Assembly (NCBI GenBank): GCA_018061585.1
Contig: JAGOTU010000001.1
Coordinates: 1-37,767 of the forward strand
From: Minisyncoccota bacterium
GTDB lineage: Bacteria; Patescibacteriota; Minisyncoccia; Phycocordibacterales; UBA2100
Direction of reading: 5' to 3'
Length of the DNA: 37,767 nucleotides
Both the position numbers and the translations under genes were made by a program. Shown here one piece after another: positions 1,036 through 22,060 of this stretch. A model generated the notes under the pieces. The model was not told where the DNA came from. It did not search any database and saw only the letters and a program-made list of their open reading frames with translations. Numbering within the stretch: the stretch's first letter is position 1; each line of letters opens with the position of its first letter.

Positions 1036-1070
1036 CATATTCTCACATTCTTGAGAATGTGAGAATGTTT
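1036..1070 (-). promoter_or_regulatory. Dyad element copy 1 (CATATTCTCACATTC-TTGA-GAATGTGAGAATGTTT), orphan copy in a convergent intergenic zone
   Basis: The core at 1039-1066 is a perfect 12-4-12 inverted repeat. All 35 nt are identical to the copy at 3038-3072. No supported minus-strand gene follows it. Confidence 0.5.
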
Positions 1071-1104
1071 TTCGCACTTTGCTATGCATATAGCTGCACC
1101 GCCA

Positions 1105-1132
1105 AATACAAAACCGGGCGCAGAGCGTCCGG
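1105..1132 (-). terminator. Intrinsic terminator of 1167..1532
   Basis: On the minus strand, hairpin CCGGACGC-TCT-GCGCCCGG (one G-U pair) is followed by TTTTGTATTT. Confidence 0.6.
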
Positions 1133-1166
1133 TTTGGGGCGGAATCGATTCCGCAAAGATCGTGCC

Positions 1167-1532
1167 CTAATAGGTCGGGTTCCTCACGCGCCTCACACAA
1201 CGGCCGTTATGAGTGACATCGTTGAACGGCGCCACACACGCAAGCGTTTGCCTGGATGATGACGAGGCGCTGTAGGTCGCCTTGTAACGACCGTTCGTGC
1301 AGCGCACCTTGAGGGCTTCGAGATCATGTCCGCCGGCGCACGACGCAATCGGAATGATTCCGAGATAGCGAAGTGTAACTTCCTCCCGATCCTGATCCTC
1401 GGACCAGATCGAAAGGGTGTAGACGGTGTTCGCTGCCACTCGACTGTGCGGCGCGATGCTCAGCATCGCCATCAGGAGCGCGAGTGTTGCCATCACGAGC
1501 GAAGCATTCGAGAGCGTAAACAGTTTCCGCAT
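1167..1532 (-). CDS. Small secreted or membrane-anchored hypothetical protein (121 aa)
   Basis: The N-terminus MRKLFTLSNASLVMATLALLMAMLSIA looks like a signal peptide. AAAGGA lies 7 nt upstream of the ATG. A consensus-like promoter lies upstream and a terminator downstream. Confidence 0.6.
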   Translation of the reverse strand: MRKLFTLSNASLVMATLALLMAMLSIAPHSRVAANTVYTLSIWSEDQDREEVTLRYLGIIPIASCAGGHDLEALKVRCTNGRYKATYSASSSSRQTLACVAPFNDVTHNGRCVRRVRNPTY

Positions 1533-1577
1533 CTGATCGTCCTTTGTGAGTGATTCTGGCTGTTAGTGACTGGCTAT

Positions 1578-1606
1578 ATAATACCACATTATTGCAGTAT
1601 GGTCAA
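1578..1606 (-). promoter_or_regulatory. Sigma70-like promoter for 1167..1532
   Basis: The minus strand reads TTGACC (1606-1601), a 17-nt spacer, then TATTAT (1583-1578). This is about 45 nt upstream of the start codon. Confidence 0.5.
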
Positions 1607-1687
1607 TATATGCTACATGGCTTTATACAGCCACACCACAGCCATTTGCCCTGCGTTATATGCATCGCCTTGCGCGCGCTATGCGTC

Positions 1688-2437
1688 CTATATTTTATAT
1701 CCCTCGAATCGCTCGATCCGAATCATCGTCGGAGCAACGCCCATCTTGGCGAGTAAGTCGCGCATTGATGCGACAAACGAGTCTCCACCGACAACAAAGA
1801 ATGCACTCTCCGCATAGTTCGGCGCAGTCTGTCCGATCATATCTGCCGATATTCTCCCCTTCAGTTCACCAGATACCGATTCGCCCGTCATCGTTGGAAT
1901 GAATCGATAATCAGTGTGCTCTGCGGCGTATGATTCGAATTCGGACAAGAACGGGATACTCGACCGGCTGCGATCGGAATGGATGTGTGTGATATCGAGC
2001 GAGCTGTTCTGATGCAAGAGTTCGCGGATAATGCTGCGGAACGGCGTGATCCCTATTCCGCCCGACAACCAGATCTGTGGCCCGGCAGAAGCCTCCCATA
2101 ATGATCCTGACGGATGGCGCACCATGATCGCATCGTTCGGCTTGAGCGCATAACAAGCGTCCTTAAATTTAGAATTGCGCACGCGCATCGCGAGTACGAG
2201 ACTCGCCTCGTATGGGGCGCTCGCTATCGTGAATTCTTTCAGCATCTCCGCATGGATTCCCGGGATCGATACCATCGTGTTCTGTCCTGAGGTAAACGCA
2301 AAATTTTCCGGACGCTCGATGGTAAGCGCCAGCGTGCTGACCGCTACCATCTCGCGGGAGATGACGCGTGTGCGATGAAAGACGTTCGCAGTCTCTCCGA
2401 ACACGAACGCTAATTCCGGAGGTAGTCCCATGCGCAC
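1688..2437 (-). CDS. Ferredoxin-NADP reductase-type FAD/NAD(P)-binding oxidoreductase
   Basis: The size (249 aa) and two-domain layout fit the family, and the NAD-binding motif WLSGGIGITPFRSI is present. It is separated from the upstream GNAT gene by only 3 nt (stop 2441, start 2437), consistent with an operon. Confidence 0.7.
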   Translation of the reverse strand: MRMGLPPELAFVFGETANVFHRTRVISREMVAVSTLALTIERPENFAFTSGQNTMVSIPGIHAEMLKEFTIASAPYEASLVLAMRVRNSKFKDACYALKPNDAIMVRHPSGSLWEASAGPQIWLSGGIGITPFRSIIRELLHQNSSLDITHIHSDRSRSSIPFLSEFESYAAEHTDYRFIPTMTGESVSGELKGRISADMIGQTAPNYAESAFFVVGGDSFVASMRDLLAKMGVAPTMIRIERFEGYKI

Positions 2438-2440
2438 ATA

Positions 2441-3004
2441 TTATCGTATATCACCGGCCCGCTTACCGCGGGGAATGTGGTACATCACCATCTCGCGATC
2501 CTCTCCCCGTCCGTTCTTCTTGTTGAACTCACGATCTACCGTGCCGCCGAGCGATTCCGCTATCTTGCGACTTGATACATTGATCGCAACGACCGGGTAC
2601 TCCAGGTAATCGTAATTGAGATTCTCATCTGCCCAATTTTTGATAGCTGTTACAGCCTCTCTACCATACGCATTCCCGTGCGCAGATTTCTTTATCCATA
2701 TACCGAGTTCCGGCGTGCGGGTGTCGAGCGCATGAATCCCGCCGTTGCCTAAAAACTCGCCGTCTTTCAGGATCGCCATAGCAAGATCCGTCCCGGCGGC
2801 ACGCTCGGCCGTCGTCTTTGCAATGTATTCGTCGGTGTCGGCAATACTTTCGGGCGCCGACGGGAACATGTGCGTGGTGATCTCGGAGGTGAACTCGCGG
2901 AATATGTCTTCGCGATACGCAGGGGTAATAGGCACAAGCGTAAGCCGCTCGCTCGTGATGCGAACAGCCTCCAGATCAAGCTTTCCGTGTTCTTCATCAG
3001 TCAT
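2441..3004 (-). CDS. GNAT-family N-acetyltransferase (RimJ/RimL-like)
   Basis: The 187-aa product has the typical LTLVPIT N-terminal strand and an acetyl-CoA pocket region (NAYGREAVTAIKNWA, INVSSRKIAESLGG). Confidence 0.75.
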   Translation of the reverse strand: MTDEEHGKLDLEAVRITSERLTLVPITPAYREDIFREFTSEITTHMFPSAPESIADTDEYIAKTTAERAAGTDLAMAILKDGEFLGNGGIHALDTRTPELGIWIKKSAHGNAYGREAVTAIKNWADENLNYDYLEYPVVAINVSSRKIAESLGGTVDREFNKKNGRGEDREMVMYHIPRGKRAGDIR

Positions 3005-3037
3005 GGAGCTATCCTAGCACTCCCCCTTTTACAAGCC

Positions 3038-3072
3038 CATATTCTCACATTCTTGAGAATGTGAGAATGTTT
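3038..3072 (-). promoter_or_regulatory. Dyad element copy 2; candidate promoter-operator of the GNAT/oxidoreductase operon
   Basis: The core at 3041-3068 is a perfect 12-4-12 dyad. The minus strand reads TTCTCA-N17-GAATAT. It lies 34 nt upstream of start 3004 and directly after the terminator of the preceding gene. Confidence 0.5.
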
Positions 3073-3073
3073 C

Positions 3074-3110
3074 TATAAAAAACTGCCACCTCGCGTCGTG
3101 TCGAGGTGGC
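3074..3110 (-). terminator. Intrinsic terminator of 3125..3697
   Basis: Stem GCCACCTCG (3085-3093) pairs with CGAGGTGGC (3102-3110). On the minus strand it is followed by AGTTTTTTAT. Confidence 0.75.
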
Positions 3111-3124
3111 ATTGTGGTCGGGTA

Positions 3125-3697
3125 TTATCCGTTCTCCAGCGCACTGATCAAGACCTTCCAGATCCTGATCTCGCATTCCTGACCCATGCGGTCCTGCTCC
3201 ATATATCGTTTGTGTTCCACGCGCTTGTCTGCAGGCAGATCATCAAGAGAGATCGTGGGAATTTCTTCCGCCTCGAGCAGACTCACATGTTCCCGCAGTA
3301 TCTCGATCACCGAACTAAAATCGGTATCAAGTGAGCGTCTATCTATCTTTGCGATCGCGTCGAAGATCTTGTCGATCCCCCGCCTGTGTTCCTGCGCGTT
3401 GAGTATCGCCTGAATGCGGATCTTCTCCGACGATATGGTCGCACGCTCGGCGTGACGACCTAGTTCCACGAACGTATCGCGCGGCTGCTCACCTGCGGCC
3501 TCCGCCATATGACGATCGATGTCTGCTGCTTCCTGTGCCATCCGCATTATCTCGTCCTCATCGGGCGGACCATTCAGTTCTGCATGAAGGCGCTGAATAC
3601 GGCGATTCAAGATGGCGCTCTGTGCGTTGAGTAGCGTCGTGATCGTGATGAGGGCTGCGTACTTGGTATCCGCGATGCGGGGTAGCGACCATTTCAT
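3125..3697 (-). CDS. Hypothetical protein (190 aa), predicted helical/coiled
   Basis: A GGAGAAGGA Shine-Dalgarno sequence lies upstream of the ATG. Composition is protein-like and a terminator follows. No family recognised. Confidence 0.6.
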   Translation of the reverse strand: MKWSLPRIADTKYAALITITTLLNAQSAILNRRIQRLHAELNGPPDEDEIMRMAQEAADIDRHMAEAAGEQPRDTFVELGRHAERATISSEKIRIQAILNAQEHRRGIDKIFDAIAKIDRRSLDTDFSSVIEILREHVSLLEAEEIPTISLDDLPADKRVEHKRYMEQDRMGQECEIRIWKVLISALENG

Positions 3698-3770
3698 CGT
3701 CTGATTCCTTCTCCAACTCTATCTTGTCGCACTATATCCACGACAATATCGCAGTCAACCAGTCAATATT

Positions 3771-3806
3771 CAAAAAGCCGCGGTGCTTGGCACCGCGGCT
3801 TTGTAT
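3771..3806. terminator. Bidirectional hairpin terminator (serves 3829..4191)
   Basis: The hairpin AGCCGCGGTGC-TTG-GCACCGCGGCT spans 3776-3800. It has an A-run on the left and a T-rich tract on the right. Confidence 0.75.
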
Positions 3807-3828
3807 TGGAAGGAGCGTGTTCGTATCG

Positions 3829-4191
3829 CTATGCTGCTTGTTCGGCCGTCGCGCGGCGAGGCGCATAGAGGTCGATGCGGACCTGCGTCATGCGCCGGAT
3901 CCACTCGCGGATGTGCTCGCGAAACGGCAGGTACAGGTACCGCAGCTCGCGGACTTCCATCACGAACATGATGTCGTCGGCAAGCAGCGCACGAAGTCGC
4001 ATTTCATTGTGCTCGCCAAGGAGGATGATCGGCGTCGTCGCTTGCACCAACACGCCGCCCTCGTGGTAGCCCGTGCACCACACGTCCGTGGACAGGCCGC
4101 CCTCGAGCGCATCCTGTTCTGCCTGGGTCCAATCGCCCCCGGTGCGATACAGGATCGTCACCATTTGCTCATCGTCTTTTCCGGTAGACAT
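3829..4191 (-). CDS. Hypothetical protein (120 aa)
   Basis: GGGAGAAGG lies just upstream of the ATG and a terminator lies downstream. The opposite-strand ORF 3724..4224 is Arg-rich and shadow-like. Confidence 0.55.
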   Translation of the reverse strand: MSTGKDDEQMVTILYRTGGDWTQAEQDALEGGLSTDVWCTGYHEGGVLVQATTPIILLGEHNEMRLRALLADDIMFVMEVRELRYLYLPFREHIREWIRRMTQVRIDLYAPRRATAEQAA

Positions 4192-4273
4192 TGCCTTCTC
4201 CCGCTGTCAGTCGATCAATTGTGATACCATCGGTACTATGCCATGTTTCGGCTACAGGTCAAATGAGTCTGGA

Positions 4274-5050
4274 CTACGTCGTAGTCGCCCACCACTTCAG
4301 TTCGCCCGTCTTGTGATGTTCCAGCACACCCCGCGCGACAGTTCCAATCGCATCAGTGCGTTCCGCACATTCCTGTAATACAGGGAGCGCCTCGTCAGTC
4401 TTTTTGCCCATCAATTGTCGGGCCGCCATAAACCTCACAGCAGCATCCTCATTCGAGAGCTTGGGAACAAGCAGACGAAGCTTAGGGTCGCGCTGCTGAA
4501 TTTCGAGGAAGTCGATCGAAATGCGTTCGAAGCGAGCATCAGCCTCCCGCTTATCCTTTGCCATAAAATGCGCGATCACATTCTTGTCGTACCCAGCCAT
4601 GAGCGCGTCGTCGGTCTGGGCGCGATGCCTGGATTCCCGCACGATTGCCGCAGACAAAATGCCGAACATCGCAACTGACGCGAGTGCGCCGACCGCACAG
4701 AGCCCGAGCAATATATACACATTCATCATCGTGTCGGATTCCAGCGTTGTCTGTGTGAATCGCGCGTATTCGAGGCCGTCATTGTATAGATTTGCGGCGG
4801 TCAGCATGCCAAAAAAGGTAGGAAATATGTACGACGGCAGCCATCCGAAATATTTCCACAGGTACCGACCAAAAATGATGATCACAAGCACATCGAGCAC
4901 CATGCTCAAGTAGCTAAGCGGCGACCCAATCGCATACAGCGCATATTGCTCTTCGATAGCTGCGATAACATACGAGATTCCGAACGCTACATAAAAAGAT
5001 TCGCGTTCATAGCGAAGTGTAAGGAACAGACGGTCCAGCTGTTTCCACAT
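4274..5050 (-). CDS. Membrane protein with C-terminal HEAT-like repeat region
   Basis: The N-terminal half has about 4 hydrophobic spans. The C-terminus (NEDAAVRFMAARQLMGKKTDEALPVLQECAE) resembles HEAT/PBS-lyase repeats. It is tightly linked to the upstream small gene. Confidence 0.55.
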   Translation of the reverse strand: MWKQLDRLFLTLRYERESFYVAFGISYVIAAIEEQYALYAIGSPLSYLSMVLDVLVIIIFGRYLWKYFGWLPSYIFPTFFGMLTAANLYNDGLEYARFTQTTLESDTMMNVYILLGLCAVGALASVAMFGILSAAIVRESRHRAQTDDALMAGYDKNVIAHFMAKDKREADARFERISIDFLEIQQRDPKLRLLVPKLSNEDAAVRFMAARQLMGKKTDEALPVLQECAERTDAIGTVARGVLEHHKTGELKWWATTT

Positions 5051-5052
5051 GG

Positions 5053-5319
5053 CTATTTCTCATTGCCCCAGCTCCAGCGCGGCTCCTCGCCGTATGCATA
5101 GCAGAACCGAATGAATCCCATCGTCAGGAACGTGATCGGCAGAACGAAAGTGAACGCGATCTCCCGCGGCGGTGAATTCTCGTCGATCGTGAGTGCGAAT
5201 GCGATGACGGCAACGATATATGCCGCCAGAACCAGCCATCCCTGCCATGTAGCCGGCTCCCATCCCCAGCCGAACCGCCGCCGCTTGAACCAGATCTCTT
5301 TGCCGTTTTGATCCGCCAT
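5053..5319 (-). CDS. Small membrane protein (88 aa)
   Basis: I trimmed the start to the internal ATG at 5319 (MADQNGKEIWFKRRRFGWGW...). The longer ORF upstream looks non-coding. Two hydrophobic spans are present. The start is uncertain, with a GTG alternative 2 codons upstream. Confidence 0.45.
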   Translation of the reverse strand: MADQNGKEIWFKRRRFGWGWEPATWQGWLVLAAYIVAVIAFALTIDENSPPREIAFTFVLPITFLTMGFIRFCYAYGEEPRWSWGNEK

Positions 5320-5422
5320 ATGCACCCACGATACCACCCCTCCTGCGCGCACGCATGAATAATTGACAGTAGGCAGATAGTATTGCACTATACCAACTGC
5401 ACAAGCCACAAGGGAGCACTCA

Positions 5423-5764
5423 ATGTTTGGCCAACGAGCCTGTATACCCATGATCCGTGAGCATGCCGAGATATTCAGGAATATCCTGCGCGACCTCAGC
5501 CTGCACCGGACATTGCGGCCCGGCGGCATCTACATCCCCAAGGATCTGGATACCGAGTCCGACATCGATGAGCTGCTGCGGAAGTACGTCCTCGGTGACC
5601 CAGACGGCGAGTTCATGATCGACGGCTTTGGCATCGATGGCCACGAAGCTGTGATCACATTCGGCAACGTGTCGTTCATGTCCGGCGGCGGCGCATCGCT
5701 CCGATATTCAGTCGTCGGCGTCAGCGTGGACTTTCTGCGCGAGAACATGGTCTTTATGAGCTGA
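5423..5764 (+). CDS. Hypothetical protein (113 aa)
   Basis: AAGGGAG lies 6 nt upstream of the ATG and a terminator hairpin lies downstream. No family recognised. Confidence 0.55.
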   Translation: MFGQRACIPMIREHAEIFRNILRDLSLHRTLRPGGIYIPKDLDTESDIDELLRKYVLGDPDGEFMIDGFGIDGHEAVITFGNVSFMSGGGASLRYSVVGVSVDFLRENMVFMS

Positions 5765-5784
5765 TTCCGGCTCATCCCAACCTC

Positions 5785-5815
5785 AAGCTCGGCATTCGTG
5801 CCGAGCTTTTCGTTT
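5785..5815 (+). terminator. Intrinsic terminator of 5423..5764
   Basis: The hairpin AAGCTCGGCA-TTCG-TGCCGAGCTT is followed by TTCGTTT. Confidence 0.75.
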
Positions 5816-5828
5816 GCAGATAGTTACT

Positions 5829-5860
5829 ACAAACAAAAGGACCGGGCATTGTTGCCCGGT
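5829..5860 (-). terminator. Intrinsic terminator of 5897..6379
   Basis: The hairpin ACCGGGCA-TTGT-TGCCCGGT spans 5841-5860. On the minus strand it is followed by CCTTTTGTTTGT. Confidence 0.75.
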
Positions 5861-5896
5861 CAGGAATGTACTGTTCAATTTCTCGCTTCGGACATA

Positions 5897-6379
5897 TCAG
5901 CCGACGACGACGCCCGTGGCTGTCGCACCACCTTGTGAGCGCTTGATGGCTCCGTAGTCGAATATGAACGGCTTCGCCTCGCCGTGCTCCACATCGTGGA
6001 ACTGGATCTCTCCGAACACTTCGGTGAGAGCGGCGCGAATCGCGCTACCGATCTTCGAGAACTTGGTCGTGTCGCCCTCGGCAATGACATTGCCCGGGGT
6101 GATCCAGAGACGGGTCACGCCTTCCGTACCGCTGAGCTTTTGCACGAACCGCGCGACCTCCTCGCTTTCGAGGCGCGCACGACGAATGTCGGATTCGCGA
6201 AGACCGTTGGTCTTCGCGCCCATCCCCATCGTCGTATATGCGTTGCTCTGCATCGGTATCAGCACGAGCGGCGCGACGCACAGGAACGACAGGCAAACCT
6301 TTGCCGCGCCGCCCTCGCCTCTGCCCATACTGCTCTCGATGGTTCCGGTTACGATCGTCGGTATCTGGCGTCCGGTCAT
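5897..6379 (-). CDS. Hypothetical protein (160 aa)
   Basis: I trimmed the start to the ATG at 6379, which has GGGAG 6 nt upstream (GGGAGAATCGA-ATG). The upstream part of ORF 5897..6502 only translates the repeat element. Confidence 0.6.
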   Translation of the reverse strand: MTGRQIPTIVTGTIESSMGRGEGGAAKVCLSFLCVAPLVLIPMQSNAYTTMGMGAKTNGLRESDIRRARLESEEVARFVQKLSGTEGVTRLWITPGNVIAEGDTTKFSKIGSAIRAALTEVFGEIQFHDVEHGEAKPFIFDYGAIKRSQGGATATGVVVG

Positions 6380-6433
6380 TCGATTCTCCCGAGTTCGGAG
6401 CGCGGGAACTGCTCCCGCCCTCATTACCGACTC

Positions 6434-6500
6434 CACCCTACCCCGCCTCATCAAAATCCGCCATATTATCGACATTCGGAAATCTGTGCTCGTATTCTGC
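6434..6500 (-). repeat. 34-nt exact repeat (6434-6467) joined to a decayed dyad element (about 6461-6500)
   Basis: CACCCTACCCCGCCTCATCAAAATCCGCCATATT is identical to 7929-7962. The following ATCGACATTCGGAAATCTGTGCTCGTATTCTG aligns loosely with the dyad copy at 7957-7991. Confidence 0.6.
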
Positions 6501-6503
6501 AAA

Positions 6504-6534
6504 CAAAAAGCGCCTCGTCATAGAGGCGCTTTTC
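6504..6534 (-). terminator. Intrinsic terminator of 6560..7204
   Basis: The hairpin AGCGCCTC-GTCATA-GAGGCGCT spans 6509-6530. It has T-runs on both strands. Confidence 0.7.
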
Positions 6535-6559
6535 AAGTTTTGAAGAACAGTCCAGTACA

Positions 6560-7204: not shown

Positions 7205-7315
7205 AGGCGACTCCTCTCATTGAACCGATGTCTATTACCTGACAGTATTATACCTCAAGACCACGCATTTGTACATATGTCAAGAGGGGCTCAACAGAGC
7301 CTTTCTGTCGATCCA

Positions 7316-7349: not shown

Positions 7350-7366
7350 GCGACTAGTCGGAATCG

Positions 7367-7903
7367 TTATTTCCAGCGCCGCATGAGCGGTCCGTGGGTG
7401 CCATAGAGCGGATCTGCGAGCGGCAGCTTCACGAGCGGCAGATACTTGAGTGCCGTGTTGTAATCGCTCTTCGTTTGCCGTTTCAGATCCCACTTCTGAC
7501 CGTAGGGATACAATCCGGCGACCGTGAAGCGATGATCGCCATTGATCCGCCTGTGCGCGACGCCGGCAGGAATCGCGACCGCGTCTCCCGCGCTCAATCG
7601 GATCTCCTTGCCACCACTGCCGCCGAAACGGATCTCTGCGGAGCCCGAGAGCACGATCAGCATTTCATGCGCAGTACTGTGGTAATGCGTGTAGCGGTAC
7701 ACCGCATTGCTCTCGACCCAGTCAGCACGCCAACGGTTCGTGCTCGCGATAGACGCAAGCGCTTGCTTTGCTGTGTGCTCGGTCTCGTTGATGAACAGAA
7801 CCGCATTGCGGTAGACAACCACCGGAAGTGCCGAGTTCGGTACAACACCGTTGTCGCCGAACAAATATCCCGCAACAGTGACCTCGTTGGATATCTTGAT
7901 CAT
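7367..7903 (-). CDS. Cupin-domain protein, YjlB-like
   Basis: The cupin core reads HYHSTAHEMLIVLSGSAEIRFGG...GDAVAIPAGVAH. I chose the ATG at 7903 because AAGGGAG lies 7 nt upstream. The ORF-track GTG at 7909 is too close to the Shine-Dalgarno sequence. Confidence 0.7.
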   Translation of the reverse strand: MIKISNEVTVAGYLFGDNGVVPNSALPVVVYRNAVLFINETEHTAKQALASIASTNRWRADWVESNAVYRYTHYHSTAHEMLIVLSGSAEIRFGGSGGKEIRLSAGDAVAIPAGVAHRRINGDHRFTVAGLYPYGQKWDLKRQTKSDYNTALKYLPLVKLPLADPLYGTHGPLMRRWK

Positions 7904-7928: not shown

Positions 7929-7962
7929 CACCCTACCCCGCCTCATCAAAATCCGCCATATT
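7929..7962 (-). repeat. 34-nt exact repeat (twin of 6434-6467), probable shared 5' leader
   Basis: The sequence is identical base for base to 6434-6467. It lies between the dyad element and the cupin Shine-Dalgarno sequence. Confidence 0.7.
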
Positions 7963-7991
7963 TTCACATTCAGAAGTATGTGAGAATGTTT
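7957..7991 (-). promoter_or_regulatory. Dyad element copy 3; candidate promoter-operator of the cupin gene
   Basis: The core at 7960-7987 (ATTTTCACATTC-AGAA-GTATGTGAGAAT) has 2 arm mismatches to the consensus plus a different 4-nt spacer. The minus strand reads TTCTCA-N17-AAATAT. It follows the dapD terminator. Confidence 0.45.
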
Positions 7992-7992
7992 C

Positions 7993-8024
7993 CATAAAGA
8001 ATGGCCGCTCGGATGAGCGGCCAT
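7993..8024 (-). terminator. Terminator hairpin after dapD
   Basis: Stem ATGGCCGCT (8001-8009) pairs with AGCGGCCAT (8016-8024). The T-tract is weak (TCTTTAT). Confidence 0.55.
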
Positions 8025-8049: not shown

Positions 8050-9192
8050 TCAAGTCTCGTGCAGTTCAGCGTTGAGCATCGTCTTGTTCTTGCGCCGTAG
8101 CATTTTCACCGCGCCGCACTTGCTGTCACGAATGAAGAGCATTTCATTCTGTCCGGAAAGCGTTTCTGCTTTCACGAAACTCCCGTCCTCGAGCTGCACC
8201 GGCATGCCTGCAGTTACATAGAGTCCGGCTTCCACGGTGCAGTAGTCACCGAGCGTGATCCCGACGCCAGAGTTCGCTCCAATGAGGCACTTCTTGCCGA
8301 CAGTGATCACCTCTTTGCCACCTCCTGACATCGTTCCCATGATCGATGCGCCACCGCCGATATCCGTCCCTTCTTTCACGAACACGCCCGCCGACACACG
8401 ACCTTCGATCATGTTGGGTCCTTCGCAACCGGCATTGAAGTTGACGAACCCTTCGTGCATCACGACCGTGCCCTCGCCAAGATGTGCGCCGAGTCGTACG
8501 CGACTTGCGTCGGCAATTCGGACCTTGGACGGGGCCACGTAATCCAGCATTCGCGGGAACTTGTCCCGCGCATGGATCATGAGCGGGTGCCTTGTGTACC
8601 CGGCTTGGATCTGACGCGACATCAGGTCTTCTTCGGCGATCGGCCCTTCGTTGGACCAGATATTGTTCGGCAGATTGTCGAACACACCGTCGAGCTTGAT
8701 ACCATGCGGCTTCACGAGCCGATGACTCAAAAGATGCAGACGAAGATACGCATCCGGCACCGTAAGGCTGCCGCGATCCGTCTCCCCCGCCCCGATGAAC
8801 GTGACCACACACACCTTGTTACCCGACATCGCGCCATCGCCCGCACGACGAATCAGTGTTGCGCGGATGTTTCGGATGATGTCGATGTTCGGATGCGGCG
8901 CGGCGTCGTCCGCCAGCCAGTCAAAGTGGGTCAGAATATCCGTAAGCATTTTTACGCCCACATCCGGATACACGATGTTCCCGGTCTTGTAGCCAAGCAC
9001 CGCCGCGAGTACTGCAGCCGTGCCGTGATTGGTCCCGTAGTTCGGATGCGGATACAAAGTGTCCAACGTCCTTCCTTCGCTGCTTTTGGTGGCGAGTCCG
9101 ACACCAAAGGCAAGCGGACGTGCGTACACCCCCTTGGCTTCGAATCCCGTCACGAACGCATCGAATGCAGCTTTTGTCGCTATCTTGGCCAT
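8050..9192 (-). CDS. dapD: 2,3,4,5-tetrahydropyridine-2,6-dicarboxylate N-succinyltransferase (long, Pseudomonas-type DapD)
   Basis: It shows strong similarity, from memory, to P. aeruginosa DapD (LHLLSHRLVKPHG, VRIADxxRVRLGAxxGEGTxVMHEGFVNFNAGxEGPxMIEGRVSAGVFV, hexapeptide repeats). I trimmed the start to the ATG at 9192, which has GGAGG 6 nt upstream. Confidence 0.85.
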   Translation of the reverse strand: MAKIATKAAFDAFVTGFEAKGVYARPLAFGVGLATKSSEGRTLDTLYPHPNYGTNHGTAAVLAAVLGYKTGNIVYPDVGVKMLTDILTHFDWLADDAAPHPNIDIIRNIRATLIRRAGDGAMSGNKVCVVTFIGAGETDRGSLTVPDAYLRLHLLSHRLVKPHGIKLDGVFDNLPNNIWSNEGPIAEEDLMSRQIQAGYTRHPLMIHARDKFPRMLDYVAPSKVRIADASRVRLGAHLGEGTVVMHEGFVNFNAGCEGPNMIEGRVSAGVFVKEGTDIGGGASIMGTMSGGGKEVITVGKKCLIGANSGVGITLGDYCTVEAGLYVTAGMPVQLEDGSFVKAETLSGQNEMLFIRDSKCGAVKMLRRKNKTMLNAELHET

Positions 9193-9263
9193 CAATTTCC
9201 TCCCAGAACAAGCCGCGAGAAACAATACTCCTCGCCCCATTTCAGTCAATCAGGCCCTTATAA

Positions 9264-16335: not shown

Positions 16336-16442
16336 CGCTACTCTCCATGTATTGAGACCTTTGCCTGTCCCGATGGTAGCAGGAGCATTGGGGCGCTATC
16401 CCCACCTTGAATTCTCGGGAGTTTGTGGCCTAATGCGTCCGC

Positions 16443-16480
16443 GTTAAAAATAATGACCGCTCGCAGTTCGCGAGCGGTCA
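16443..16480 (-). terminator. Intrinsic terminator of guaA
   Basis: Stem TGACCGCTCGC (16454-16464) pairs with GCGAGCGGTCA (16470-16480). On the minus strand it is followed by TTATTTTTAAC. Confidence 0.8.
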
Positions 16481-16505
16481 TGTATCGTTCCTACCTGATG
16501 TGAAT

Positions 16506-18125
16506 CTATCCCCACTCAATTGTGGAGAACGGTTTATCGCTGGTGCGATACACCACGGCACCGCAACCTTTCACTTCGTTTCCGATGCGTCGACTCGCAC
16601 GCTTGATGAGCCACCACGGCAGCTCTGCGGCCTGCGCTGTAAAGCCGTTAACGCTCCACACCGACCACAATGCGATCACGAGCCCGCTTCCGCCCTCGTC
16701 GCCTTTCGTCGACGTGTGTTCGGATTTTGTGACCACCGCGCCCGCCTGCCATACTTTTTCGTAATAGCCGGCGCGACGAAGCTCCTCGATCCAGATACCG
16801 TCGGCCTTTCTGCTCATCGCGAGCTTTTTCTCTGTGATCTCGCCTTCGTTTCGAACTGCCTGTCCCGGACCCGGGAACGGATGCCGGGAAAGCAATACTT
16901 CCGGGACACTGATCTCGCGCCCTATGTCACGTGCGCTGTCTTTCACGCAATCGACAAGCGGGAGAAGCTCGGGAAGGTAAAATCCCAGGTTCGTATTGTG
17001 ATGCAATTTGATCACAGATTTACGCGCCCCGGAGTCGTGCCCGCCACCGCTTTCGGAGATGTCGGTGTAAAGGGTGCCTTGGCAGATATGGGTCGCACCG
17101 ATCCTCTTGGCAATCGCTTCGAGGATTGGCTTATACACACTGCGCATGGCAATACGTTTCCCACGCATATCTTCGATACCTTTGAACGCTTCCAAGAATT
17201 CGGTAGTCGCGTCCACGATCTCGAGCGTGAGCCACTCCTGATCGCGGAAGTATTTCAGCACGAACTCTTCGTCGTCCGGACGATCGATGCCGCGTATGTA
17301 TACCGCATGCACCTTGCCTTTGCCGAGCTTCGCTTTTTTGAGCAGATACGCACACACCGACGAGTCAGAACCGCCAGATAGCGCGAGCAGTACCGTGCCG
17401 TCGCCGACGGTCTGTCGAATTTCCCGGATCTTACGATGCGCAACGCTTTTTACCGGATATCGATTCTTGGCTTTGCAGATCCTGAACACGAAGTTCGAGA
17501 ATATGTTCGGGCCGTGGATCGTTTCGGATACCTCCGGATGGAACTGCACACCGTACAGTATCCGCTGGAACTCACCGGCGGCCATCACACGATGACATTC
17601 ACCCGTCGGGCGAAAGCCGTCGCTGCGGATCTTGGCGATCTCGCTGATCTCGTCGCCATGACTCTGCAGTACAGTCATATTCCGGGGACATCCGACAAAT
17701 AGCGCGCTCCGCTCTCGCACCATGTCGTGAACACCGAATTGGTGATCGCCGGTTTTCACCTGCAAGCCGATCCATTTGGCCCACATTTGAAAGCTGAGAC
17801 AGATTCCGAGGTACGGGACACGGTTGTCCAGACACCACGCGAAGATCGCATCATCGAACGGCGGCGGCTCCGTATCAACTGAGCCGGGTCCGCCGGACCC
17901 GATAATGCCCGTCGGTTTGAGGGCAGCGACATCCGCGACCCTGACCGTGGCCGGATCCGCCACAAGGCAGAACACGCCGAGCTTTGCGATCTGCTGATAG
18001 ATCAGGTGATCGGTTTGACTGCCCATGGCGAAAAGCAGAAAGACCTCCTTCGTACGGCGAACTTTCATTTCTTCGGCAATAGCGGCCAGTGCGTCCGGAG
18101 TAGCTTTTTTGAAGGTGTCGAGCAT
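16506..18125 (-). CDS. guaA: GMP synthase (glutamine-hydrolysing)
   Basis: A GATase-1 domain, the PP-loop SGGSDSSV and the C-terminal dimerisation motif (...STIEWG end) are present. I trimmed the start to the ATG at 18125, which has AAGGAG 8 nt upstream. Confidence 0.9.
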   Translation of the reverse strand: MLDTFKKATPDALAAIAEEMKVRRTKEVFLLFAMGSQTDHLIYQQIAKLGVFCLVADPATVRVADVAALKPTGIIGSGGPGSVDTEPPPFDDAIFAWCLDNRVPYLGICLSFQMWAKWIGLQVKTGDHQFGVHDMVRERSALFVGCPRNMTVLQSHGDEISEIAKIRSDGFRPTGECHRVMAAGEFQRILYGVQFHPEVSETIHGPNIFSNFVFRICKAKNRYPVKSVAHRKIREIRQTVGDGTVLLALSGGSDSSVCAYLLKKAKLGKGKVHAVYIRGIDRPDDEEFVLKYFRDQEWLTLEIVDATTEFLEAFKGIEDMRGKRIAMRSVYKPILEAIAKRIGATHICQGTLYTDISESGGGHDSGARKSVIKLHHNTNLGFYLPELLPLVDCVKDSARDIGREISVPEVLLSRHPFPGPGQAVRNEGEITEKKLAMSRKADGIWIEELRRAGYYEKVWQAGAVVTKSEHTSTKGDEGGSGLVIALWSVWSVNGFTAQAAELPWWLIKRASRRIGNEVKGCGAVVYRTSDKPFSTIEWG

Positions 18126-18144
18126 TTCGATGACTCCTTGTAGA

Positions 18145-18169
18145 ACAAAAAATGCAGCCGTATGGCTGC
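18145..18169 (-). terminator. Short terminator after the histidine kinase gene
   Basis: On the minus strand, the hairpin GCAGCC-GTAT-GGCTGC is followed by ATTTTTTGT. The stem is only 6 bp. Confidence 0.5.
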
Positions 18170-18212
18170 CTCCTGCCGCGCACAATACGCGCCCGTACGC
18201 AGGGCGCAATAT

Positions 18213-20294
18213 TTACAAAGTGTTCAATATGGCGAGTACTTCGGTGATGCTCACGGGCTTTGTGAGGTGGTAATTGAAACCCGAAACGATCGCCTCTGAT
18301 TTGTCGGAATCCTGTCCGTATCCGGTAAGTGCGATGAGTATAGGCTGCTTGCCCCCATGTGACCGGATCTTGCGGGCAACCTCGTGCCCCGACATATCCG
18401 GCAAACCAATATCAAGAAGCACCACCTGCGGCATAAAATCATGCAGTGCAACGAGCGCACTTTTACCATCGTGCGCCGTCTGCACCATGTGTCCATGGTG
18501 CGCGAGAAGCCGCTCCATGCCGATGGCCGCCGCTTCGTTGTCGTCGACAACAAGAATGCGCTTCGTGCCTGTAGCGGTGAGTGTGTTCACGGCCGGTGTC
18601 GCGGTAACAGTTGCCGGCACCGGAACGATCGGTAGCAGAATTGTGAATGTGCTGCCTCTCCCCTCGCCTAAGCTATGTGCCGTGATCGTGCCGCCATGCA
18701 TCTCCACTATCTGACGCGAAAGGAAGAGGCCGATGCCGATACCGGCGGCGCGAGAAGACGCAAGTGATAGTTGCTGGAACGGCGAAAAGATCTCTTCAAG
18801 ACGTTCGGGTGGAATACCCACACCGCTGTCCTTGATCGCGATCACTAAATTGTGCCCGTCTACGGTGGCAAGGACTTCTACCTCGGTACCCTCGGGGGAA
18901 TATTTGGAGGAATTATTGAGCAAGTTACCGATCACCTGCTCCATACGGAGCGAGTCGACGAACAACGGCACCGGCTCGCTGGGTAGCCACACACGAATAG
19001 TCTGCATTTTATGTGCACGCAATAACTCCGTCGCGTTGACCGAATGGTCAATGATCTCTTTCAGATCCGCACGCTCGGGTACAACATCGAATTTCCGCTC
19101 GGTAATGCGCGCAACATCCAAGAGGTCGTCGAGCAAGCGGCGCATACCGAATGTCTGTTGCTCTGCACGTGCGATCATCGCTGTGGATTGCCCTACCGTG
19201 ACCTCCATCTTGAGGACTTCGAGCGTACTGACGACCGTCGCGAGCGGATTGCGAAGTTCATGTGCGAGGATCGCAATGAACTCATTCTTTGCACTATCGT
19301 TCGCAGCAAGCTGTTTTGTGATCTCTTCCAGTTCAGAGACTTTTGTATTGAGATGTAGTTCAGCCTGACGACGCTCTTCTGCAAGTACAAAGAACTGCAA
19401 GAATATCGGAGCCAACAAAATGATGAACAATTCGTCGGCGAATATTTGCCGTGCGAGCGGCGTGTCGCCGGGGCTTGCTACGATGCTCCCAAGGATACCC
19501 AATACAGAGAGGATCATAAGCGCACTCGTGTTCATACGAGCGTCGAAACGGAATGCGATCCAGATATGTGTGATGCAGAGGAGGAAGATAAAGGCGAAGA
19601 CAAGTGAAGGGATACTTATCCAAAACAGCGCATAGATAGAAAGTATTAGCAGTCCAAACGCCGCGACCGCTTCCGCGCGTTGATTGCGCTTGATCGGCCA
19701 CGAGCGAGCGGAAGACCAGGCGGTTATAAATGGGGTGAAAATTACGATCCCGAAGACCCCGCCGGCCCACGTGCGACTGAAGTTGAGCCACGCACTGTCC
19801 CGAAGCGTATCAAAGTAGACCTGTCCGACCGTGCTTATTATCGGGGCGATCGCGGCGATCACGAATGAGAATCCGACGATCGTAACCACATCCCTCGTTC
19901 GTTGGACACTGCCGTCGGAGCCCGTGCTCAGCAGGATCCATGCACCGATGAGCGGCTGCACTGTGTGCCCGACTGTCGAGAACGCCAGGTTCGTAAGCGG
20001 TACATCAATGCTCAGTGTTAGGATGGACCCGACATGAGCGAGCGCTATAGGTACCCACATACGATTCCCCTTCAGGAGTACGGCAGCGATCGCAATCCCG
20101 GCTGGAGCCCAGATAAGGGCCGGGGAGGTATCCAGCGTATAGAGGATGTATTGAGCAAGTTTTGCGGTTGCAAAATAGCCGAGAAATACTACGACGTCGG
20201 CTTTCCATTCGCGGTCGGTGATCGTGCGGAGCACGCGGGAGAGGGGTCCATGTGCGGCTGTGCGCTGCATATGTTTAGAAATCGCATAATACAC
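18213..20294 (-). CDS. Hybrid sensor histidine kinase: MASE1-like membrane domain + HisKA + HATPase_c + receiver
   Basis: The H-box AHELRNPL is present, along with N/G boxes (GIGIGLFLSRQIVEMHGGTI) and a C-terminal receiver (ILVVDDNE...LLDIGLPDMSG...K). The N-terminal ~300 aa is polytopic. Confidence 0.85.
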   Translation of the reverse strand: MYYAISKHMQRTAAHGPLSRVLRTITDREWKADVVVFLGYFATAKLAQYILYTLDTSPALIWAPAGIAIAAVLLKGNRMWVPIALAHVGSILTLSIDVPLTNLAFSTVGHTVQPLIGAWILLSTGSDGSVQRTRDVVTIVGFSFVIAAIAPIISTVGQVYFDTLRDSAWLNFSRTWAGGVFGIVIFTPFITAWSSARSWPIKRNQRAEAVAAFGLLILSIYALFWISIPSLVFAFIFLLCITHIWIAFRFDARMNTSALMILSVLGILGSIVASPGDTPLARQIFADELFIILLAPIFLQFFVLAEERRQAELHLNTKVSELEEITKQLAANDSAKNEFIAILAHELRNPLATVVSTLEVLKMEVTVGQSTAMIARAEQQTFGMRRLLDDLLDVARITERKFDVVPERADLKEIIDHSVNATELLRAHKMQTIRVWLPSEPVPLFVDSLRMEQVIGNLLNNSSKYSPEGTEVEVLATVDGHNLVIAIKDSGVGIPPERLEEIFSPFQQLSLASSRAAGIGIGLFLSRQIVEMHGGTITAHSLGEGRGSTFTILLPIVPVPATVTATPAVNTLTATGTKRILVVDDNEAAAIGMERLLAHHGHMVQTAHDGKSALVALHDFMPQVVLLDIGLPDMSGHEVARKIRSHGGKQPILIALTGYGQDSDKSEAIVSGFNYHLTKPVSITEVLAILNTL

Positions 20295-20393
20295 GTTTGG
20301 TCACGGGATTCTAGATGTCGCAACGCAGCCGGACGGGCCCTAGAAATTCTCAAAAAAATCCGTATAATCCTGTGCACAGAGAGGAATACAGAG

Positions 20394-20465
20394 GGCCCTA
20401 TCGTCTATCGGTTAGGACACATCCTTCTCAAGGATGGAAGCGGAGTTCGACTCTCCGTAGGGTCA
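20394..20465 (+). tRNA. tRNA-Glu (anticodon CTC)
   Basis: A cloverleaf was folded by hand: acceptor GGCCCTA/TAGGGTC, anticodon stem CATCC/GGATG with loop TTCTCAA, and T-arm CGGAG-TTCGACT-CTCCG. No CCA is encoded. Confidence 0.85.
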
Positions 20466-20520
20466 AAGCAAAAGCATTGGAGACTGCAAAAGCAGTCTCT
20501 TTTGCTTTGACCCTACGGAG
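20453..20520 (+). repeat. 22-bp perfect inverted repeat that includes the last 13 nt of tRNA-Glu, with a nested hairpin
   Basis: CTCCGTAGGGTCAAAGCAAAAG (20453-20474) is the exact reverse complement of 20499-20520. An inner hairpin GAGACTGC-AAAA-GCAGTCTC lies at 20480-20499. Confidence 0.85.
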
Positions 20521-20529
20521 GAAGGGGTC

Positions 20530-20583
20530 GGGAAACCTGTCTGGTTTCCCGTGGAGGAAGGTTGGGAAAACCGTGGGTTTCCC
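20530..20583 (+). repeat. Two tandem GGAGGAAGG + hairpin units (double-hairpin repeat, copy A)
   Basis: The hairpins are GGGAAACC-TGTCT-GGTTTCCC (20530-20550) and GGGAAAACC-GT-GGGTTTCCC (20564-20583). They are related to 26119-26186. Confidence 0.6.
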
Positions 20584-20599
20584 AGGCCGTAAGGGTCAA
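20581..20599 (+). repeat. Direct near-copy 1 of the tRNA-Glu 3' end
   Basis: CCCAGGCCGTAAGGGTCAA compares with the tRNA 3' end CCGTAGGGTCAA (20455-20466). Confidence 0.6.
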
Positions 20600-20674
20600 C
20601 CAAATATTTCCGAACGGCGGCGAGGAAATTATTGTGGCTCACATAAAAACGCAGTGTCAGCTTCCATAGAGTGT

Positions 20675-20693
20675 CCCAGTCCGTAAGGGTCAA
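20675..20693 (+). repeat. Direct near-copy 2 of the tRNA-Glu 3' end
   Basis: CCCAGTCCGTAAGGGTCAA matches copy 1 at 18 of 19 positions. Confidence 0.6.
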
Positions 20694-20789
20694 AGATAAT
20701 ATTCGACGACCGCGAAATAGTATGCGTCGCCGAATCGAATGCGTTGATATACATGATGAGTCAGTGAGGAGTTCGCGGCCGGCGTGACG

Positions 20790-20829
20790 CAAACAAACAG
20801 CCCCGAGCATTGCTCGGGGCCTTGTTTCG
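20790..20829. terminator. Bidirectional terminator (serves 20843..21091)
   Basis: The hairpin GCCCCGAGC-ATTG-CTCGGGGC spans 20800-20820. It has T-rich tracts on both strands. Confidence 0.75.
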
Positions 20830-20842
20830 AAGGAACAGATCG

Positions 20843-21091
20843 TCAGATTGCTTTGTACTCGGGGTTACTGTTCCAGAGCCCTTTGTTGGCGACATGGGCA
20901 ATGATGCCTGCTTGGGTCACGAAGCTGTGCTCTTCAAAATCGTGAGCGCAGCTTGCGATGACGCTCCGTGCGGCATCGACAACGTTCTCCGGCGAGAAAT
21001 CGGCAACAAGCTCGCCGACCATAAGTCTCCCTTTCGGCAGGTTCAACACATCTTCGGGCGTCGAGTTTTCGGTGACTTTCATCGAGATCAT
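20843..21091 (-). CDS. Hypothetical protein (82 aa), last gene of the arsR operon
   Basis: The ATG at 21091 has AAGGGGA 5 nt upstream. No family recognised. Confidence 0.5.
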   Translation of the reverse strand: MISMKVTENSTPEDVLNLPKGRLMVGELVADFSPENVVDAARSVIASCAHDFEEHSFVTQAGIIAHVANKGLWNSNPEYKAI

Positions 21092-21136
21092 GGAATTCCC
21101 CTTCGGTCTGGAACACGTGAGCAGGGTCAATGGTCG

Positions 21137-21643
21137 CTACGCTGCGCCGACAAACGGAAGTTTTTTCCGCAATACCTTGAGCGCTTCAACGGAATCAAAG
21201 AACAGATCTGCGACAGTGTCCGCCGACACCTTGAGGAACGATGTGCCCGTGACCACGATCACGCACTCGTCGCCCTCGACTTCGATGTTCCAGCCGGACT
21301 CTGTATAGACGGACCGAGCCATTCGACGCACATCCGATTGCAGCGCCTCCGTGAGATCGCGCACTTCGTTCGGAACGAACCACCGCGCAATGCGTTCGAT
21401 CATACCGCGCTTCACCTCGTCGGTGAGCTCGCCATGTGACGTGATGCGCATACGCGCACCCTCCTTTTGTGTCGCAGCAATTGCGCGAAGCGACATCGGG
21501 ATCGCAATGCCGAGCGCGGTGCTCATCAGTTTCTCCTTGTACGGCACGACCTTGAACGCCATGCCGACAACGAATGGCAGCGGCGCAGCGATGGCTGCGA
21601 GCACCGCCTTGATCAAGTCGTCACTCGGAACGTATTCGCTCAC
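21137..21643 (-). CDS. Hypothetical protein (168 aa), middle gene of the arsR operon
   Basis: The GTG start has GGAGG 6 nt upstream. No family recognised. Confidence 0.55.
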   Translation of the reverse strand: MSEYVPSDDLIKAVLAAIAAPLPFVVGMAFKVVPYKEKLMSTALGIAIPMSLRAIAATQKEGARMRITSHGELTDEVKRGMIERIARWFVPNEVRDLTEALQSDVRRMARSVYTESGWNIEVEGDECVIVVTGTSFLKVSADTVADLFFDSVEALKVLRKKLPFVGAA

Positions 21644-21715
21644 GTAGTACCTCCCCTGTATGAATTTTTAACCGCCGATACTATGTAACAGATTCCTTAT
21701 CTTGTAAAGTGACTG

Positions 21716-22021
21716 CTATTCCCCCTTCTCGGGCTTGAGCGCAGAGAACTCATCGATGAATTTCATAAATATCTTGCCGTAACGCGAGAGCTTGTGGTGC
21801 ACATCACGGCCCTCGTGCACCTTTTCGATAAGGCCCGCAAGCGCGAGCCGACGGGTATGTTCGGATACGGTCTTGATGTTCGCTTTGAGGCCGTCTGCGA
21901 TCGCGACGAGCGACATGCCCGGACTCTTGCGTATAAGGAACAGGATCCGAATGCGTGTGTGATTCGCGACACCTTTGAAGTGCCGTTCCAGCTTCTTGGG
22001 GCCTTTAGTTGCGAGCGCCAT
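21716..22021 (-). CDS. ArsR/SmtB-family winged-helix transcriptional regulator
   Basis: The 101-aa product has FKGVANHTRIRILFLI...MSLVAIADGLKANIKTVSEHTRRLALAGLI, the typical ArsR HTH core. Confidence 0.8.
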   Translation of the reverse strand: MALATKGPKKLERHFKGVANHTRIRILFLIRKSPGMSLVAIADGLKANIKTVSEHTRRLALAGLIEKVHEGRDVHHKLSRYGKIFMKFIDEFSALKPEKGE

Positions 22022-22026
22022 CCGTA

Positions 22027-22060
22027 CATATTCTCACATTCTTGAGAATATGAGAATGTT
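22027..22060 (-). promoter_or_regulatory. Dyad element copy 4, abutting the arsR start codon
   Basis: The core at 22030-22057 (ATTCTCACATTC-TTGA-GAATATGAGAAT) has one mismatch. The minus strand reads TTCTCA-N17-GAATAT, followed by GTACGG and then the arsR ATG. Confidence 0.55.

Follow-up and report, generated by a model that had tools for sequence, protein, structure and literature searches.

The window analysed here, a stretch of 37,767 nucleotides from a Minisyncoccota bacterium (contig JAGOTU010000001.1), contains several copies of a 35-bp palindromic element, one of which lies at the promoter of a gene (21716-22021, minus strand) for a small ArsR-like winged helix-turn-helix (wHTH) protein. 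The interpretation that we favour, with moderate confidence, is that the element is the local form of a palindrome spread throughout the candidate phyla radiation (CPR, or Patescibacteria), that it is the site of this wHTH protein, which would repress its own gene, and that it is in addition copied as a small repeat. CPR bacteria make up a large and mostly uncultured share of bacterial diversity, with tiny genomes and very few recognisable regulators. An earlier note on this DNA had described a candidate promoter-operator shared by the ArsR-like regulator and a few further transcription units. It was right on regulator and promoter, too narrow on the regulon, and missed both the breadth of the palindrome's distribution and its behaviour as a repeat: in all likelihood the element serves as an operator and is dispersed as a repeat as well.

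A palindrome conserved across the CPR

Within the window the pattern ATTCTCACATTC-N4-GAATGTGAGAAT, three mismatches being allowed, matched at four places, all in the plus-strand spelling: 1039-1066 and 3041-3068 (no mismatch), 22030-22057 (one mismatch) and 7960-7987 (two mismatches). The number expected by chance, from 100 shuffles of the window, was 0.00. Reading of the sequence and the pattern search bear out the description given earlier: the 35-nt string at 1036-1070 recurs unchanged at 3038-3072, those at 22027 and 7957 are near-copies, and the last combines two arm mismatches with a different spacer (AGAA). The window thus has four clear copies (1036, 3038, 7957 and 22027) and two degenerate ones, the first decayed and the second split.

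When one genome of each prokaryotic species was scanned with the pattern, made slightly degenerate, at least 119 loci were returned. From these the family core reads ACATTCT-C-ACATTCT-NN-AGAATGT-G-AGAATGT, that is, four 7-mers forming a 15-2-15 palindrome of 32 bp. The 12-4-12 inverted repeat that had been recognised in the window is present, as part of this longer symmetry of the family, and weaker symmetric flanks beyond the core (AAnA ... TnTT) bring the element to 32-40 bp in all. The exact core is found in at least 119 genome loci with a GC content of 28-71%, and the hosts of the listed loci are nearly all Patescibacteria/CPR metagenome-assembled genomes (MAGs), from Saccharibacteria to many Parcubacteria lineages. 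A few matches lie in genuine high-GC Planctomycetota contigs (one of 5.97 Mb), where the AT-rich 32-mer stands isolated in GC-rich DNA.

Linkage of the palindrome to a wHTH gene

All open reading frames (ORFs) of the 119 listed loci and of the window (120 sources) were clustered. The family found most often beside the palindrome, in 20 of the 120 sources, consists of homologues of the 21716-22021 gene; the next family reaches nine. For the reverse comparison 80 metagenome loci were picked by the protein alone, and palindromes with at most 6 mismatches in 30 positions were sought within 200 nt upstream of the gene and at its stop codon. Both places were occupied in 49 loci, the palindrome was clearly one-sided in 14, and 14 gave no match; most of the latter have palindromes of like architecture but diverged sequence, the two flanks of a gene sharing one variant. 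The link between the element and the ArsR-like protein, which had been proposed from the window, is strongly supported in both directions by these sequence comparisons. The downstream copy usually encodes the last codons of the gene (TTC TCA CAT TCT TGA/TAA, read as FSHS-stop). Unlike most of its relatives, the wHTH gene of the window appears to be without a recognisable second copy at its stop: the alignment score there was not above background (533 of 2000 random segments scored as high).

Partial synteny of the gene was also seen. In 12 metagenome loci (among L122-L132 and L202) the gene for a penicillin-binding protein immediately precedes it; in a Moranbacteria contig, as in the window (21716-27936), it lies a few genes downstream of those for a penicillin-binding protein and a Mur ligase.

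The palindrome overlaps the promoter of the regulator gene

Alignment of 63 loci at the upstream copy revealed two layouts. In type A a TGnTATAAT-like box lies 2-12 nt past the palindrome, with the ATG a further 7-10 nt on. In type B the outer arm (GAGAATAT or GAGAGTAT) itself contains the -10, and the ATG stands 6-7 nt beyond; this type includes the window, L120, L124-L138 and others. The minus-strand pair TTCTCA-N17-GAATAT, earlier read as -35 and -10 hexamers, is indeed present in the window and fits type B exactly (-10 at 22028-22033, ATG at 22021): at the regulator gene it sits, clade-wide, where the -10 of a leaderless transcript should be. A -10-like hexamer is found within 25 nt of 60% of the upstream wHTH-gene copies. 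Across the 63 loci, then, an inverted repeat overlaps the gene's own promoter, with the ATG 6-10 nt past the -10.

Together the two types predict a leaderless mRNA, with the palindrome over the -35 and the spacer and, in type B, also over the -10; the mRNA of the 21716-22021 gene is probably of this kind. A palindrome lying over a promoter is the classic layout of an autorepressor, and because the palindrome here covers the gene's own leaderless promoter, the most likely function of the protein is to repress its own gene. In the window, the ArsR-like gene very probably has its promoter and its autoregulatory operator in the copy at 22027-22060.

An ArsR/SmtB-type fold with a near-invariant recognition helix

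The window protein matches the Pfam models HTH_24, MarR, HTH_20 and HTH_5. It scores 40.8 bits against the NCBIfam ArsR/SmtB model, under the 55-bit cut-off of that model, and a sequence search of the PDB returned only distant ArsR-family chains (E-values 1e-3 to 1e-1). The AlphaFold model (pLDDT 87.7) has the order H-H-H-H-E-E-H, and Foldseek aligned it to CzrA, CadC, SmtB, ArsR, HlyU and SqrR at TM values of about 0.7-0.77. By Pfam, PDB, AlphaFold and Foldseek together the protein is assigned the ArsR/SmtB winged-helix fold (alpha1-alpha2-alpha3-alphaR-beta1-beta2-alpha5). On its predicted fold and on the overlap with the promoter, protein and element qualify as a pair of the ArsR/SmtB autorepressor type.

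Members of the family are 88-101 aa long, and the 5693 homologue clusters, from Patescibacteria, are named only as winged helix-turn-helix. The recognition helix KTISEHTRRL is nearly invariant across the family, which matches the invariance of the palindrome DNA. In one clade (L173, L182, L192 and L200) the inner half-site is ACAAACT, not ACATTCT, and the protein has TIGEH for TISEH and, in the wing, GK for GR: these changes are suggestive of protein-DNA co-variation, as one event only. No description of the motif or of the CPR regulator was found by an exact-sequence and keyword search of the literature, most subscription journals lying outside its coverage.

Dispersed copies behave as a repeat

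Placement and neighbours were counted for 251 copies with up to four mismatches. Genes whose start faces a copy are of mixed function, the 116 proteins falling into 110 Pfam families (NUDIX 5, GNAT 4, DUF3795 3 and HhH-GPD 3), and genes whose end faces a copy are equally mixed: a conserved regulon was ruled out on these grounds. Copy-bearing intergenic regions are 74% tandem, 11% convergent and 15% divergent, against a baseline in the same loci of 69%, 16% and 15% (the convergent share of copies is 11-16% and the divergent share 12-15%). Solo copies have a -10-like hexamer in 21% of cases beside gene starts vs. 19% beside gene ends. Orientation of the AT-variant arm gives a trend only across genomes, at 14 starts vs. 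6 ends (other side, 11 vs. 10).

At least eight copies lie in-frame inside conserved genes. In YchF they occupy two different positions in two genomes; in TspO the copy is at the same loop in two genomes (L196:5739-6263 and L050:2689-3207; 63% amino-acid identity), and the 32 nt of the palindrome are 91% identical between these genes vs. 68% for the rest of the gene. Genes for UvrC, a histidine kinase, an HhH-GPD glycosylase, Dus and MPG also carry in-frame copies, with Pfam domains that span the insert. Only two stop-free frames are used, HSHILxNVRM and TFSHSxECENV. Copies from the same locus are alike: 79% of same-locus pairs have the centre dinucleotide in common, vs. 38% expected, a value reached in 0 of 2000 permutations. 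Taken together, mixed neighbours, near-random placement, in-frame copies and likeness within genomes argue for copying within genomes or concerted evolution, and the dispersal behaviour points to a small mobile or self-copying repeat. Some copies (L026:1322-1360, L037:7829-7866 and L065:5345-5386) have a third 8-bp unit on one arm (GAGAATGT x3), from which it follows that arms can grow by unit duplication.

Copy number appears to be of the order of tens per genome, a rough inference from the 20 of 119 listed loci that contain the gene and the 0-4 extra copies per 6-20 kb. Several 20-kb neighbourhoods have only the two gene-flanking copies, and arrays in which genes and palindromes alternate occur in L156 (five copies in 6 kb), L145, L090 and the window.

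The small, defined regulon of the earlier note does not survive these counts, given the mixed neighbours, the near-baseline convergent placement, the lack of -10 enrichment at solo copies and the copies within reading frames. The same note held that many copies, scattered without bias, would make the element a repeat of the REP (repetitive extragenic palindromic) or MITE (miniature inverted-repeat transposable element) type: this proved partly true, in that the element is a dispersed repeat, but one that is very probably also an operator at the regulator gene.

Proposed mechanism

We propose that a small wHTH protein of the ArsR/SmtB fold binds the core and its AAnA ... TnTT flanks as four 7-bp half-sites. 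On the palindrome of its own promoter (over the -35 and spacer and, in the window, also the -10) it would repress a leaderless transcript; a second copy normally lies on the gene's stop codon. The palindrome would be copied to intergenic regions of all types and in-frame into coding sequence, with no target duplication, and copies in the same genome stay alike. Any gene that received a copy between its start and a preceding terminator would come under the control of this repressor. Such positions are occupied by the copies at 3038, 7957 and 6461 (decayed), which follow independent terminators, and the -10-like GAATAT of the outer arm points at their genes; if bound by the protein they would act as repressible promoters or as roadblocks. 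The resulting 'regulon' would be lineage-specific and accidental, not a conserved functional set.

A bolder version, which we regard as doubtful, makes of the wHTH gene and the palindrome a self-propagating 'mobile operator' module, persistent across Patescibacteria and occasionally present in Planctomycetota/Verrucomicrobiota; the non-catalytic protein, recognising the duplex or a cruciform, would be needed for copying or retention. If true, transcription factor and site would be a co-evolving genetic symbiont, resembling REPIN-RAYT systems without the transposase, and the genes under the factor would be continually rewired.

Several observations weigh against an autorepressor with a copied operator. 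For the protein, a metal- or thiol-sensing site (alpha3N Cys or alpha5 His/Asp) is not conserved in the family alignments: the invariant columns hold no Cys, many members replace the frequent Cys of 'CNFKT' by G, A, S or V, the window protein having A at this place, and alpha5 has no conserved His or Asp. The proposal does not account for the copy on the stop codon. For the promoter, a generic sigma-70 scan does not call TTCTCA-N17-GAATAT, and metatranscriptomes from the same studies hold 0 reads of this contig. For the solo copies, the near-equal -10 frequencies at starts and ends, the arm orientation and the diversity of start-facing neighbours all count on this side, and the possible regulation of the window's GNAT, cupin and 160-aa genes is read from position alone. 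For the copying, direct repeats of 3-7 nt, as left by target-site duplication, were not above control at the core or the extended boundaries of 172 copies. A phmmer search, using gamma-delta resolvase and XerD queries, found no resolvase-like or XerD-like gene among 5238 ORFs in 1.16 Mb of flanking DNA, a search that may miss a distant recombinase; the recurrent neighbour families include no transposase-like family. Finally, the flanks of the palindrome covary and so lengthen it, with at least three extra pairs in 36% of copies vs. 3% of controls: this counts against the proposal because a plain duplex operator does not predict extra pairs.

Alternative explanations

Much of the evidence for dispersal would suit a selfish repeat of the REP/REPIN type or of the RPE (Rickettsia palindromic element) type, in which the wHTH protein, its gene bracketed by repeats like that of a RAYT, binds the hairpin or cruciform and helps to copy or keep it, regulation of neighbours being incidental or absent. 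Such a repeat would account for a gene that in most loci has a copy on either side, for in-frame copies in conserved genes and near-random intergenic placement, for likeness among copies of a genome, for flanking pairs that extend the hairpin and for solo copies without -10 boxes; moreover HlyU, of the ArsR type, acts on a cruciform-forming palindrome (PMC10325908). We nevertheless consider this unlikely. The protein is an ArsR fold of 88-101 aa with no nuclease or transposase domain, in 63 loci the upstream copy is placed exactly on the promoter of the gene, as is characteristic of a repressor under autoregulation, and the number of copies is apparently (by the rough inference above) tens, not hundreds, per genome. 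Furthermore the 5' tags of REPs, GTAG and CGTC, are absent, and the sequence is kept across a super-phylum, unlike REPs.

The 15-2-15 build also invites comparison with crossover sites of a site-specific recombinase: inverted arms of 12-15 bp round a 2-bp centre resemble those of serine recombinases, and the palindromes would then bound exchangeable cassettes, of which the wHTH gene is the commonest. The centre dinucleotide varies between genomes and is common within a genome, genes and palindromes alternate in L156, L145, L090 and the window, and the neighbours are small accessory enzymes (NUDIX, GNAT, DUF3795 and glycosylases). One related-strain contig parts from the window precisely where the 3038 copy ends, on a weak, 22-nt anchor. 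The idea is quite improbable given that no resolvase-like or XerD-like gene was found in the 1.16 Mb of flanks or among the recurrent neighbour families, that solo in-frame copies have no cargo, and that 2.9 million viral contigs contain 0 palindromes; it also leaves the overlap with the wHTH promoter unexplained. The viral contigs hold one wHTH homologue, and an origin in phage was ruled out from these two counts.

A role at the level of RNA, as bidirectional terminator, stabiliser or processing site, is very improbable. The 32-nt RNA folds at -18.9 kcal/mol with a stem that the flanking pairs lengthen, many copies lie 0-30 nt past stop codons or between convergent genes, and the terminator scan called the 1036 copy. 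An intrinsic terminator has a GC-rich stem and a U-tract: the stem of the palindrome is AT-rich, TTTT occurs within 9 nt of 40 of 173 copies (23%), 12-15% of copies stand between divergent genes, and the copies of the window are each preceded by a separate GC-rich terminator. Mismatches in the arms have no G.U bias on the sense strand (33 vs. 37), which together with the scarcity of T-runs argues against an RNA hairpin or terminator. In an Rfam scan of the window only tRNAs reached the gathering score and no family matched the palindrome; a hairpin has no need, moreover, of a stem that is invariant over 28-71% GC. The lack of G.U bias and the few T-runs, beside the covarying flanks, favour a DNA-level role, through a cruciform or hairpin form or through template-switch 'correction' of quasi-palindromes.

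Least probable of all are sites of chromosome organisation comparable to parS/ParB, Noc/NBS or MatP/matS instead of gene-specific operators: the palindrome is kept across the whole super-phylum, like parS, is tolerated inside genes, is present in apparently tens of copies, clustered in some regions (six within 22 kb from the start of the window, five within 6 kb of L156), and belongs to a protein whose gene is partly syntenic with the dcw cluster, but there is no partner ATPase or other conserved neighbour, several 20-kb neighbourhoods have only the two gene-flanking copies, and the ArsR fold and promoter overlap fit a repressor.

Copies and neighbouring genes in the window

The features of the window are given in Table 1. 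It had been claimed that the copies follow terminators and precede starts of minus-strand genes. Hairpins do stand before the copies at 3038, 7957 and 22027 (the last seen by eye), but the 1036 copy lies between convergent genes and precedes none. The 3038, 7957 and 6461 copies are 33-81 nt before the GNAT/oxidoreductase unit, the cupin gene and the 160-aa gene.

Table 1. Palindrome copies, promoter elements, terminator-like hairpins and associated genes in the window.
Feature	Position	Strand	Remarks
Palindrome copy, putative operator	22027-22060	-	Overlaps promoter of ArsR-like gene; 1 mismatch
-10-like GAATAT	22028-22033	-	In 22027 copy; TG one base upstream
-35-like TTCTCA	22051-22056	-	In 22027 copy
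ArsR-like wHTH gene, 101 aa	21716-22021	-	ATG 6 nt past palindrome; proposed cognate repressor
Palindrome copy	3038-3072	-	33 nt upstream of GNAT start (3004); downstream of terminator of gene 3125-3697
Palindrome copy, 2 arm mismatches, centre AGAA	7957-7991	-	53 nt upstream of cupin start (7903)
Palindrome copy, orphan	1036-1070		Convergent genes 245-970 (+) and 1167-1532 (-); neither flank has a gene start
Decayed copy (~6461-6500) with 30-nt leader	6436-6500	-	Upstream of 160-aa gene (start 6379); from alignment
Split degenerate copy	53-157		By eye: ACATATTCTCGCATTTCCC ... GGGAATGTGAG ... GGAATGTTT
Intrinsic-terminator-like hairpin of gene 3125-3697	3084-3111	-	Terminator scan; directly before 3038 copy
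Intrinsic-terminator-like hairpin of gene 8050-9249	8001-8024	-	Terminator scan; directly before 7957 copy
GC-rich bidirectional terminator hairpin of gene 245-970	996-1025	+	Terminator scan; adjoins 1036 copy
Terminator-like hairpin before 22027 copy	~22068-22096	-	By eye only
GNAT acetyltransferase gene	2441-3004	-	Followed by NAD-binding oxidoreductase gene 1688-2437; candidate target unit of 3038 copy
Cupin gene	7367-7903	-	Candidate target of 7957 copy
Gene for 160-aa protein, no Pfam match	5897-6379	-	Downstream of decayed copy

Both degenerate copies of the earlier description are there. The decayed one aligns with the others, and it (6436-6467) and the 7957 copy (7932-7962) have a 30-nt flank in common (CCCTACCCCGCCTCATCAAAATCCGCCATATT), situated between palindrome and gene start, which argues that palindrome and leader were duplicated in the window as one unit. 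The split copy, visible by eye, has about 55 nt of GC-rich nested hairpins between its arms and a 13-nt insert inside the right arm. A related-strain contig (run X6) joins an intact copy to position 184 (joint 3072 -> 184), and the related strain thus appears to carry an intact copy where the window has the split one. The split copy and the 1036 copy, in its convergent context, look like bystanders.

No clean case of an empty site was found in the related-strain contigs, in which the differences amounted to additional flanks attached to the element and a single weak joint at its edge. In the contig with this joint (run X4) the sequence departs from the window exactly where the 3038 copy ends on the right and returns to it at 3772 (window 3074-3772), skipping gene 3125-3697; the anchor is only 22 nt, so that the evidence is weak.

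Elsewhere in the window, a lysyl-oxidase-like gene and a glucose/sorbosone dehydrogenase gene (22733-24742, plus strand), cargo unusual for a CPR genome, sit between the wHTH region and a cluster of the dcw type (Mur ligase, penicillin-binding protein, RsmH and MraZ, ~24.7-31 kb). The window has six tRNA genes, and four of these form a cluster at 34.0-35.4 kb (listed positions 20394-20465, 31003-31073, 34066-34547 and 35339-35409). The tRNA gene at 31003-31073 (minus strand) overlaps the 5' part of a plus-strand ORF (30900-33356), whose true start is probably further downstream.

Copies outside the CPR and significance

Perfect or near-perfect copies were found in 61-71% GC Planctomycetota/Phycisphaerae contigs (L024:1029-1060, L033:1248-1279, L064, L102:7479-7510 and L027:1145-1176), with no wHTH homologue within these 8-kb loci; they could reflect transfer from CPR or independent retention. 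Further copies (L007, L034, L035, L059, L060 and L063) were found where low-GC contigs had been binned into MAGs under the labels Bacteroidales, Gammaproteobacteria, Clostridia, Bdellovibrionales and Pacearchaeota, and these contigs may in fact be mis-binned CPR sequence. The exact 32-mer can also serve in practice to recognise CPR sequence among metagenomic bins: where a MAG bears the label Gammaproteobacteria, Clostridia, Bacteroidales or Pacearchaeota its presence may flag mis-binning, and in true high-GC Planctomycetota contigs it may flag transfer.

A near-invariant pair of repressor and operator would be one of the few predictable regulatory circuits of the CPR, and operator, repressor and leaderless promoter together would provide a ready part for the genetic systems being developed for Saccharibacteria. 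A 32-bp repeat that spreads even into coding regions would, in turn, be a compact bacterial case in which the binding site of a transcription factor propagates as a mobile element does.

Comparison with known systems

Operators of the ArsR/SmtB family have a 12-2-12 inverted-repeat build. The CPR pair resembles SmtB, CzrA and CadC in fold (Foldseek TM 0.7-0.77), in the small wHTH protein of homodimer type, and in the long inverted repeat with a 2-bp centre over the regulator's own promoter. It differs from them in that the CPR family has no conserved alpha3N or alpha5 metal ligands and its gene no linked resistance or transport operon, while its operator is identical across a super-phylum, has a second copy on the stop codon and is dispersed, including into genes.

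HlyU, an ArsR-type wHTH protein of Vibrio, acts on a cruciform-forming palindrome and so de-represses a single locus (PMC10325908). The likeness lies in the ArsR fold, as matched by Foldseek, and in a perfect intergenic palindrome with the potential to form a hairpin; by analogy, HlyU offers a possible reason for the covarying, stem-extending flanks of the CPR palindrome. Unlike the HlyU site, that of the CPR is multi-copy and lies over the regulator's own promoter, and a cruciform is here only a candidate form.

Among repeats, the element differs from MITEs by the absence of target-site duplication in 172 copies, and from integron attC or recombinase sites by the lack of GTTRRRY at the ends and of any resolvase-like or XerD-like ORF in the 1.16 Mb of loci, a search that may miss a distant recombinase. 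In REP/REPIN-RAYT systems, palindromes of 20-40 bp, mostly extragenic and multi-copy, are accompanied by a single-copy RAYT gene flanked by repeats, with no target-site duplication (PMC3733652). The CPR palindrome is likewise mostly extragenic and multi-copy, flanks one gene and leaves no target-site duplication. In place of a GTAG/CGTC tag, however, it ends in AAnA-ACATTCT ... AGAATGT-TnTT, the gene that it flanks encodes a wHTH protein and not a Y1 HUH transposase, its copy number is apparently far lower, and its sequence is kept across phylum-level lineages whereas REPs are species-specific. The RPEs of Rickettsia and other small repeats are palindromic and stand in-frame in conserved genes (PMC1779305, PMC10969869), as do the CPR palindromes, which occupy loops or variable regions and use only two stop-free frames. 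RPEs are some 100-150 bp long, are confined to a single genus and are not known to have a cognate DNA-binding protein, while the CPR element is 32-40 bp long and tied to a specific wHTH protein. What is apparently new, then, is a pair of operator and repressor in which the operator, conserved throughout a super-phylum, also propagates as a 32-bp repeat.

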